From positions 1-64,000 of IMG/VR virus record IMGVR_UViG_3300008259_004660: a DNA stretch of 64,000 nucleotides; one strand, given 5' to 3'. The notes below the pieces were generated by a model. That model had not been told where the DNA came from. It saw nothing but the letters and a program-made list of their open reading frames with translations, and searched no databases. Position 1 is the first letter of the stretch. Each line of letters begins with the position of its first letter. Both the position numbers and the translations under genes were made by a program. This document shows, piece by piece, positions 845 through 1,134 of the stretch. Source of the DNA: a virus.

Positions 845-1134
845 CTGGTCGTAAATACTTCAGGTCTCGTAAACCTGTTTGCTTAGTAGTGATGAATTCT
901 TACCGTAGAGCTAACGGTGGAAAAAACGAGTACCGTCTACTATCTCGACATTATGTTTTGGATAGGGAGTACATAGTTAGATGAAGTCATGAAAAGAGAA
1001 CCTAGCTGCTGGGTCATACCGCGAGATTACCAACTCAACAAGCAGTCAGAAAAGAAACAAGCACTGATATTGGGGATGACTCACCTGCTGATGAACCAAT
1101 AGCGCGGAGACGCAGGATCCTACCGCCAGTGCTT
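845..1134 (+). ncRNA. candidate structured ncRNA of unknown class within tRNA operon
   Basis: ~300 nt without a credible ORF; hairpins 861-877, 902-918, 940-965, 1000-1014; 8-bp stem AAGCACTG(1059-1066)/CAGTGCTT(1127-1134) enclosing crossing helices. Confidence 0.5.

Follow-up and report, generated by a model that had tools for sequence, protein, structure and literature searches.

The tRNA cluster near the start of IMG/VR record IMGVR_UViG_3300008259_004660 raises the question of what is encoded by the 305 nucleotides (nt) that separate two of its tRNA-Leu genes. The record comprises 184,824 bases and is 78% complete; its initial 64 kb was analyzed and is called the window here. It encodes a large terminase, baseplate genes, a transfer-messenger RNA (tmRNA), and three tRNA-Leu genes, and it belongs to an uncultured phage with a genome of roughly 300 kb, complete relatives of which have genomes of ~296 to 297 kb. 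The spacer (window positions 838 to 1142) lies between tRNA-Leu(UAG) (754 to 837), the CCA end of which abuts it and which is called by both ARAGORN and Rfam, and tRNA-Leu(CAA) (1143 to 1228). In this region, ARAGORN and Rfam call just these two genes and a third one, tRNA-Leu(UAA) (2189 to 2272). The spacer RNA and its helices, the two flanking tRNA genes, and the promoter described below are all on the (+) strand. Comparison with homologs shows that the spacer specifies a conserved, noncoding RNA with a two-module fold. We favor the reading that 838 to 1142 is the gene for a stable, trans-acting noncoding RNA of an undescribed family, and we give this reading about an even chance of being correct.

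The upstream gene encoding a cyclic nucleotide monophosphate (cNMP)-binding protein (38 to 694) was used as a synteny query and identified 13 related IMG/VR loci, nine of which keep a spacer of ~325 nt after tRNA-Leu(UAG) that is alignable with that of the window. DNA patterns from the conserved part of the spacer added 3 IMG/VR loci and 20 metagenome loci, and the family totals 22 distinct full-length sequences of 200 to 330 nt, with a single copy per genome. All members were aligned with R1, a covariance model built for the RNA's 3′ half, and alignment A6 was fitted to this model. A looser pattern applied to viral contigs yielded 24 new loci, none of which matched the model beyond the pattern itself. 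Sixteen records, related by their terminase or cNMP-binding protein, were also searched for the RNA, and the sole match among them was a record already known to carry it. In prokaryote genomes, the scan found one true match, a 585-nt contig (L138; JAURFH010000442.1) in which the 3′ half of the RNA is present in full. This contig has low coverage and was binned into a Verrucomicrobiota metagenome-assembled genome; it is probably a stray phage fragment, representing either a weak hint at the host or a binning error. No cultured relatives were found, with helicase identities of ≤25% in the phage collection; blastn of the region matched tRNA-Leu genes alone, and the bS21 gene, considered as a clade marker, is absent. 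The loci recovered thus place the family in a single subclade of uncultured jumbo phages and nowhere else.

In the aligned sequences, the first module takes the form of a four-way junction. Its closing helix, P1, comprises 9 bp, in which a U-run at the 5′ end (UUUUUUCUG, 839 to 847) pairs with an A-run (CAGAAAAGA, 1047 to 1055). This long-range helix was proposed by RNAalifold, and every helix was then checked by pair counts. P1 is 99.5% paired in the 22 sequences and has two compensatory pairs and several U·G wobbles; because of its U·G and G·U pairs, the structure fits only the (+) strand, which is that of the tRNAs. The P2 hairpin (851 to 882) consists of an outer stem (851 to 855/878 to 882) and an inner stem (861 to 865/873 to 877), which are separated by the conserved 5-nt bulge UNCNU (856 to 860) and capped by the 7-nt loop NUCGUNR (866 to 872). 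It is 96.9% paired, and compensatory changes occur at all five pairs of the inner stem. P3 (883 to 996) is a variable arm of ~110 nt in the window and exists in three forms, two long ones that are unrelated to each other and a 4-bp stub. The window form is common to L037 and L038 only, and the stub, found in L029, L041, L043, and L044, reduces the whole RNA to ~200 nt. Since this arm is expendable, the function must lie in P1, P2, P5, and module 2. P5 (1005 to 1010/1041 to 1046) and P5a (1023 to 1025/1034 to 1036, with an 8-nt loop at 1026 to 1033) are both 100% paired and jointly have three compensatory pairs.

The loops of P2 and P5a are joined by a 4-bp kissing contact, which in the window is formed by GUAA (869 to 872) and UUAC (1027 to 1030). 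Across subgroups, the partners are GUCG/UGAC, GUCA/UGAC, GUAA/UUAC, and GUUA/UAAC (GUNR/UN′AC), so that one pair occurs in three Watson-Crick states, with a single mismatch in the 22 sequences. P5 runs on directly into P1, and so does P2 into P3, with no nucleotide in between in the latter case; P1 and P2 are 2 to 3 nt apart, and a "variable" joiner of 9 to 13 nt precedes P5. This strand continuity and the kissing loops together give module 1 the topology of a tRNA cloverleaf with a contact resembling that between the D-loop and the T-loop. No consistent covariation was found by eye for extra pairing of the P2 bulge or the J3/5 joiner with other regions.

Module 2 (1059 to 1134; ~76 nt) consists of a closing stem around two hairpins. 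The 8-bp closing stem (1059 to 1066/1127 to 1134) is 100% paired, with compensatory changes at five of its eight pairs. Hairpin Pb (1068 to 1073/1096 to 1101) has two compensatory pairs and, in one subgroup, a tandem U·U mismatch, and its 22-nt loop, GGAUGACUCACCUGCUGAUGAA (1074 to 1095), is invariant. Hairpin Pc (1104 to 1107/1123 to 1126) has one compensatory pair. A loop-loop pairing between 1084 to 1088 and 1112 to 1116 is plausible from the alignment; it comprises 6 bp in most relatives, and because it crosses other helices, it would form a pseudoknot. With R1, 97.6% of the cells are paired, versus 25 to 47% with slid partners, and 11 of its 27 pairs (module 2 together with P5 and P5a) are compensatory. 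The window copy scores 176 bits against R1 (E value, 3e−46) and contains all of the family helices without a mismatch. It also has all of the marks of the family, namely, P1, P2 with the UNCNU bulge, P5 and P5a, the kissing loops, and module 2 with GGAUGACUCACCUGCUGAUGAA.

In total, compensatory substitutions were found in seven helices or contacts, including every core helix and the P2/P5a kissing contact, while only 3 to 68% of the cells are paired in the slid-partner control structures overall. In the synteny-found set, the core is 78 to 83% identical and the Pb loop 98% identical, compared with 69 to 71% for the two flanking tRNA-Leu genes. This set is free of pattern bias, and in it the core is better conserved than the tRNAs. 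A protein-coding gene was rejected, as no reading frame is conserved and the relatives differ by insertions and deletions (indels) that are not multiples of three; the open reading frames (ORFs) of the spacer region are limited to one of 62 codons (796 to 984) and one of 37 codons (989 to 1102).

These results partly confirm an earlier note on this DNA, made from the sequence of the window alone, which had described an unclassified structured RNA in the tRNA operon, with a pseudoknot-like 3′ domain and no credible ORF, at 845 to 1134. The general description is borne out by covarying homologs and by the short frames and frame-breaking indels, and all of the complementarities that it listed exist; however, its extent and its list of helices need correction. 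The spacer is structured as proposed, but the RNA begins not at 845 but at 838/839, right after the CCA of tRNA-Leu(UAG). Three of the proposed helices are upheld: 861 to 865/873 to 877 is the inner stem of P2, 1059 to 1066/1127 to 1134 is the closing stem of module 2, and TATTGG/CCAATA is Pb. The helices 902 to 906/914 to 918 and 940 to 944/961 to 965 appear in the consensus fold of the variable arm, which is represented by three sequences with one-sided changes only, and they are plausible, as is the crossing pairing CCTGC/GCAGG (1084 to 1088/1112 to 1116). Two others have to be abandoned. The 3′ partner in GGAT/ATCC (1074 to 1077/1117 to 1120) is UCAC or UAAC in most relatives, and 1000 to 1005/1009 to 1014 competes with the covarying P5. 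The list lacked the long-range helix P1 and the P2/P5a contact, and it gave no sign that the middle third of the RNA is a dispensable variable arm.

Does this RNA belong to a known family? No Rfam 15 family reached its gathering score in 838 to 1142, and at an E value of ≤10, the window copy, a long relative, and the 200-nt minimal relative gave only noise, with scores of 12 to 17 bits against thresholds of 48 to 50. The families covered include GOLLD, ROOL, HEARO, raiA, RNase P, the signal recognition particle RNA, 6S, tmRNA, riboswitches, and self-cleaving ribozymes. The absence of a full-length match agrees with the earlier note, which could not assign the RNA to GOLLD, ROOL, the T4 RNAs rnaC and rnaD, or ribozymes of the hepatitis delta virus (HDV) type. 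Literature searches found no description of the spacer RNA. The Rfam model of YrlA was without a match, and the 185-kb record, which is 78% complete, showed no TROVE (Ro60/Rsr) or DUF2828 gene of the kind associated with Y RNA, the DUF2828 search having been run without a positive control. A copied piece of rRNA is not indicated by a comparison with the Escherichia coli rrnH operon, which stands in for the rRNA of the host and shared only chance-level 9- to 11-mers, and blastn against E. coli genomes gave no match.

The likeness to tRNA is one of architecture. Module 1 has the strand topology of a tRNA, with two coaxial stacks and a covarying contact between the arms corresponding to the D and T arms, and module 2 consists of an acceptor-like stem and two kissing hairpins. 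Unlike in tRNA, four Watson-Crick pairs rather than a T-loop motif make the contact, a CCA end is absent, and the size of the "anticodon" arm varies between a 4-bp stub and ~120 nt. An actual tRNA was rejected, since neither ARAGORN nor RF00005 calls the spacer RNA, and the loops of P2 and P5a are not T- or D-loop sequences.

Stable RNAs in phage tRNA clusters have been known since T4 rnaC and rnaD, and they are still unexplained. According to the T4 annotation, these are stable noncoding RNAs in a phage tRNA operon that adjoin homing-endonuclease genes, as the spacer RNA does, and these "species 1 and 2" RNAs are presumably freed by tRNA-processing enzymes. They are, however, 139 and 119 nt long, compared with 200 to 330 nt, their place is at the cluster's end rather than between two tRNA-Leu genes, and they show no likeness in sequence or architecture. 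Homology was rejected, as R1, which covers the 3′ half only, gave no match at T4 positions 70908 to 71171 with filters off. T4 provides a precedent for orphan stable RNAs of phage tRNA operons as a kind; the family and its architecture are new.

In an HDV fold, two pseudoknots are nested, the first strand (P1) being paired with the middle and P2 closing to the 3′ end. The first strand of module 2 is instead paired with the last, and the HDV-type Rfam models are silent; an HDV-like or theta fold was therefore rejected. Theta ribozymes, which are HDV-like, adjoin phage tRNAs (PMC10879173). They resemble the spacer RNA in being small pseudoknotted RNAs directly beside phage tRNA genes, whereas the spacer RNA is upstream of its tRNA and far larger. 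A hammerhead ribozyme, in which CUGAUGA is joined by stem II, GAAA, and a stem III with a UH cleavage site, was also rejected. The motif CUGAUGA is present at 1088 to 1094, but it is followed by the 3′ strand of Pb, with no stem II and no GAAA, and the Rfam models are silent.

The maturation of MALAT1/mascRNA offers another parallel, in which RNase P acts at a downstream tRNA-like structure and makes the 3′ end of a long RNA. Likewise, the 3′ end of the spacer RNA would come from RNase P acting on the next tRNA, and, by this analogy, module 2 could itself act as a tRNA-like signal for cleavage between the two modules. The MALAT1 system differs in being eukaryotic and unrelated in sequence, and no triple-helix element was seen in the spacer RNA. 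The Rfam mascRNA model matched only the genuine tRNA-Leu(UAA) of the window.

How would such an RNA be made? A sigma-70-like promoter (TTGACC, 16 nt, TATAGT; 705 to 732) precedes tRNA-Leu(UAG) and probably marks where the transcript containing the RNA begins, and no terminator or promoter was found in the window between the spacer RNA and either flanking tRNA. The spacer RNA would be cotranscribed with the tRNA-Leu genes from this promoter and released by the tRNA-processing enzymes of the host. Its 3′ end would arise from cleavage by RNase P at +1 of tRNA-Leu(CAA), 8 nt past the closing stem, and its 5′ end from 3′ processing of tRNA-Leu(UAG). Since both ends lie in helices (P1 and the closing stem), the RNA should be long-lived. 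The single-stranded tail CACUUUAU (1135 to 1142) doubles as the 5′ leader of tRNA-Leu(CAA), and its ACUUU is retained by nearly all members. In 20 of the 22 distinct members, the distance from the closing stem to the next tRNA or tRNA-like gene is 6 to 12 nt. The upstream neighbor varies among the relatives and may be a tRNA, a promoter of the RNA's own, or an ORF (L042). L019 has the identical promoter-leader cassette immediately 5′ of the spacer RNA, and L007 has this upstream sequence too. The working part of the molecule would be the invariant face of module 2. Its likeliest partner is a protein or an RNA that belongs to the translation or tRNA apparatus, for which it would serve as a scaffold or a decoy.

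The cassette, which occupies 705 to 753 in the window and 1400 to 1450 in L019, reads TTGACM, 16 to 17 nt, and TATAGT, followed by TTCTTTTAAATAY, and a remnant of it, TTTAAATAC, lies between the tRNA and the spacer RNA in L002, L003, and L012. ARAGORN missed two tRNA-like genes, one in L019 (1768 to 1853), which starts 8 nt past the RNA, and one in L032 (2988 to 3072). In both, a Leu-type anticodon loop accompanies an acceptor stem and a T-arm with GTTCGAATC. ARAGORN also missed the tRNA-Leu(CAA) that follows the RNA in L005 (5127 to 5246; also in L006), the anticodon loop of which is interrupted immediately past C34 (CUC^...AAAA) by 32 inserted nt that form a hairpin. This gene could contain a mini-intron or be disrupted. 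In cyanobacterial tRNA-Leu(UAA), a group I intron occupies the matching position, but the insert of L005 is far too short for one.

Several observations weigh against a stable, trans-acting RNA. The minimum free energy (MFE) of the whole spacer is at chance level relative to shuffled sequence (z = +0.48), and z scores of −0.85 to −1.7 for subdomains and the minimal relative are not significant, so that the evidence for structure is comparative and comes from covariation. The sequences fall into only ~4 to 5 subgroups, which leaves few independent events behind the covariation. Parts of module 2 are fixed by the pattern used to retrieve the metagenome members, and the invariance of these members there is in part a product of the search. 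GCAGG of the Pc loop never changes, and the CCTGC/GCAGG pairing is invariant in 21 of 21 distinct sequences of alignment A6; for this reason, covariation cannot prove it. L032 is without an intact tRNA for ~140 nt downstream of the RNA, and the L007 type has just the degenerate 5′ part of a tRNA there. The relative G001 (IMGVR_UViG_3300023179_004209), with a complete genome of 296 kb and a large terminase 62% identical to that of the record, is without the RNA; the family is narrow, and this phage group can evidently do without it. L010 likewise does without it, and 13 other partial records gave no match. In addition, the phage is uncultured, the RNA is known from DNA sequence alone, and its partner protein or target is only postulated.

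The most attractive specific version of the favored reading is a tRNA-shaped decoy, in which one or both modules imitate the tRNA L-shape, with its coaxial stacks and loop-loop "elbow," and occupy a host enzyme that recognizes it, such as a tRNA-cleaving defense nuclease, RNase P, or the synthetase or a modification enzyme of the long-arm tRNA-Leu. The cloverleaf strand topology of module 1, with its covarying loop-loop contact at the position of the D/T-loop contact, suggests such a role, and module 2 repeats the plan minus the fourth arm. The RNA also sits among three tRNA-Leu genes, and the phage encodes an Rnl1-type RNA ligase (window 12260 to 13414), the type with which T4 repairs tRNA damage. 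On the other hand, ARAGORN and the Rfam tRNA model are blind to the RNA, which lacks a T-loop sequence, a conserved loop of the anticodon kind, and a CCA end; its helix lengths are unlike those of tRNA, many four-way junctions have such a topology, and the target is only hypothetical. We consider a decoy of this kind to be doubtful. A bolder proposal is that a two-module tRNA mimic is cut by RNase P at up to three sites and acts on the host tRNA or translation machinery, or that module 2 is a new catalytic or ligand-binding fold, and this we regard as unlikely. The cuts would fall before P1, before module 2, and before tRNA-Leu(CAA), and the freed modules could act as decoys for a tRNA-cleaving antiphage nuclease or sequester a factor specific to long-arm tRNA-Leu.

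The near-constant 6- to 12-nt link to the 5′ end of the downstream tRNA or tRNA-like gene and the conserved ACUUU leader could also be explained by a cis-acting leader, that is, a folded spacer that orders or aids the processing of the polycistronic tRNA precursor and has no role after its release. It might, for example, prevent the mispairing of two similar tRNA-Leu sequences or expose the site for RNase P. An insulator, however, needs no invariant 22-nt loop, no pair of loop-loop contacts, and no conservation above that of the tRNAs. Other tRNAs in these genomes lie 6 to 12 nt apart without such an element, and L010 and the complete relative G001 lack the RNA, all of which makes this explanation rather improbable. 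Still less probable is a ribozyme or aptamer, in which the invariant core of module 2 would form a pocket for catalysis or for the binding of a small molecule, either of a self-cleaving RNA that frees the adjacent tRNA or of a sensor that governs tRNA processing. The compact pseudoknotted fold of ~76 nt and its long invariant unpaired stretches, including CUGAUGA, are suggestive of such a pocket, as is the position beside a tRNA, which is like that of theta ribozymes (PMC10879173). Nevertheless, the hammerhead, HDV-like, twister, pistol, hatchet, and riboswitch models are silent at an E value of ≤10, the helix order is unlike that of HDV, CUGAUGA is without stem II and GAAA, no expression platform is present, and RNase P already supplies the cleavage. 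The chance-level folding energy, the two short ORFs, and the homing-endonuclease genes that move about in the region might suggest a nonfunctional spacer, a decayed tRNA, an intron remnant, or a small protein gene. A nonfunctional spacer is effectively excluded by the compensatory substitutions in seven helices or contacts and by a core more conserved than the flanking tRNAs. Frame-breaking indels between relatives speak against a small gene, and the group I intron and tRNA models are without a match; the whole group of explanations has a very low probability.

The family provides a workable case for the study of such RNAs, with a defined fold of 200 to 330 nt, a natural minimal version of ~200 nt, two loop-loop contacts that are covariation supported or invariant, a 22-nt invariant surface, and a fixed placement before a tRNA. 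If a tRNA-shaped decoy or a new functional fold proves true, it would show how large phages manipulate the tRNA biology of their hosts; otherwise, it is one more orphan RNA family with a narrow distribution.

An HNH_3 endonuclease gene (1294 to 2184) fills most of the interval between tRNA-Leu(CAA) and tRNA-Leu(UAA) (1229 to 2184), and upstream of it lies an 11-nt duplicate of the T-arm of tRNA-Leu(CAA) (~1270 to 1280), TGTCGGTTCGA. ORFs of endonuclease size also occur elsewhere in the cluster, in place of the RNA in L010 and between tRNA-Leu(UAG) and the RNA in L042. The endonuclease gene of the tRNA cluster looks like a mobile homing endonuclease. G001 has 31 tRNAs, one of which (L135, 10502 to 10577) has the 4-base anticodon CTCT according to ARAGORN and is possibly frameshift-suppressor-like. 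The tmRNA of the window (8603 to 8996) encodes a 25-residue tag, and that of the relative L034 encodes a different tag of 28 residues.
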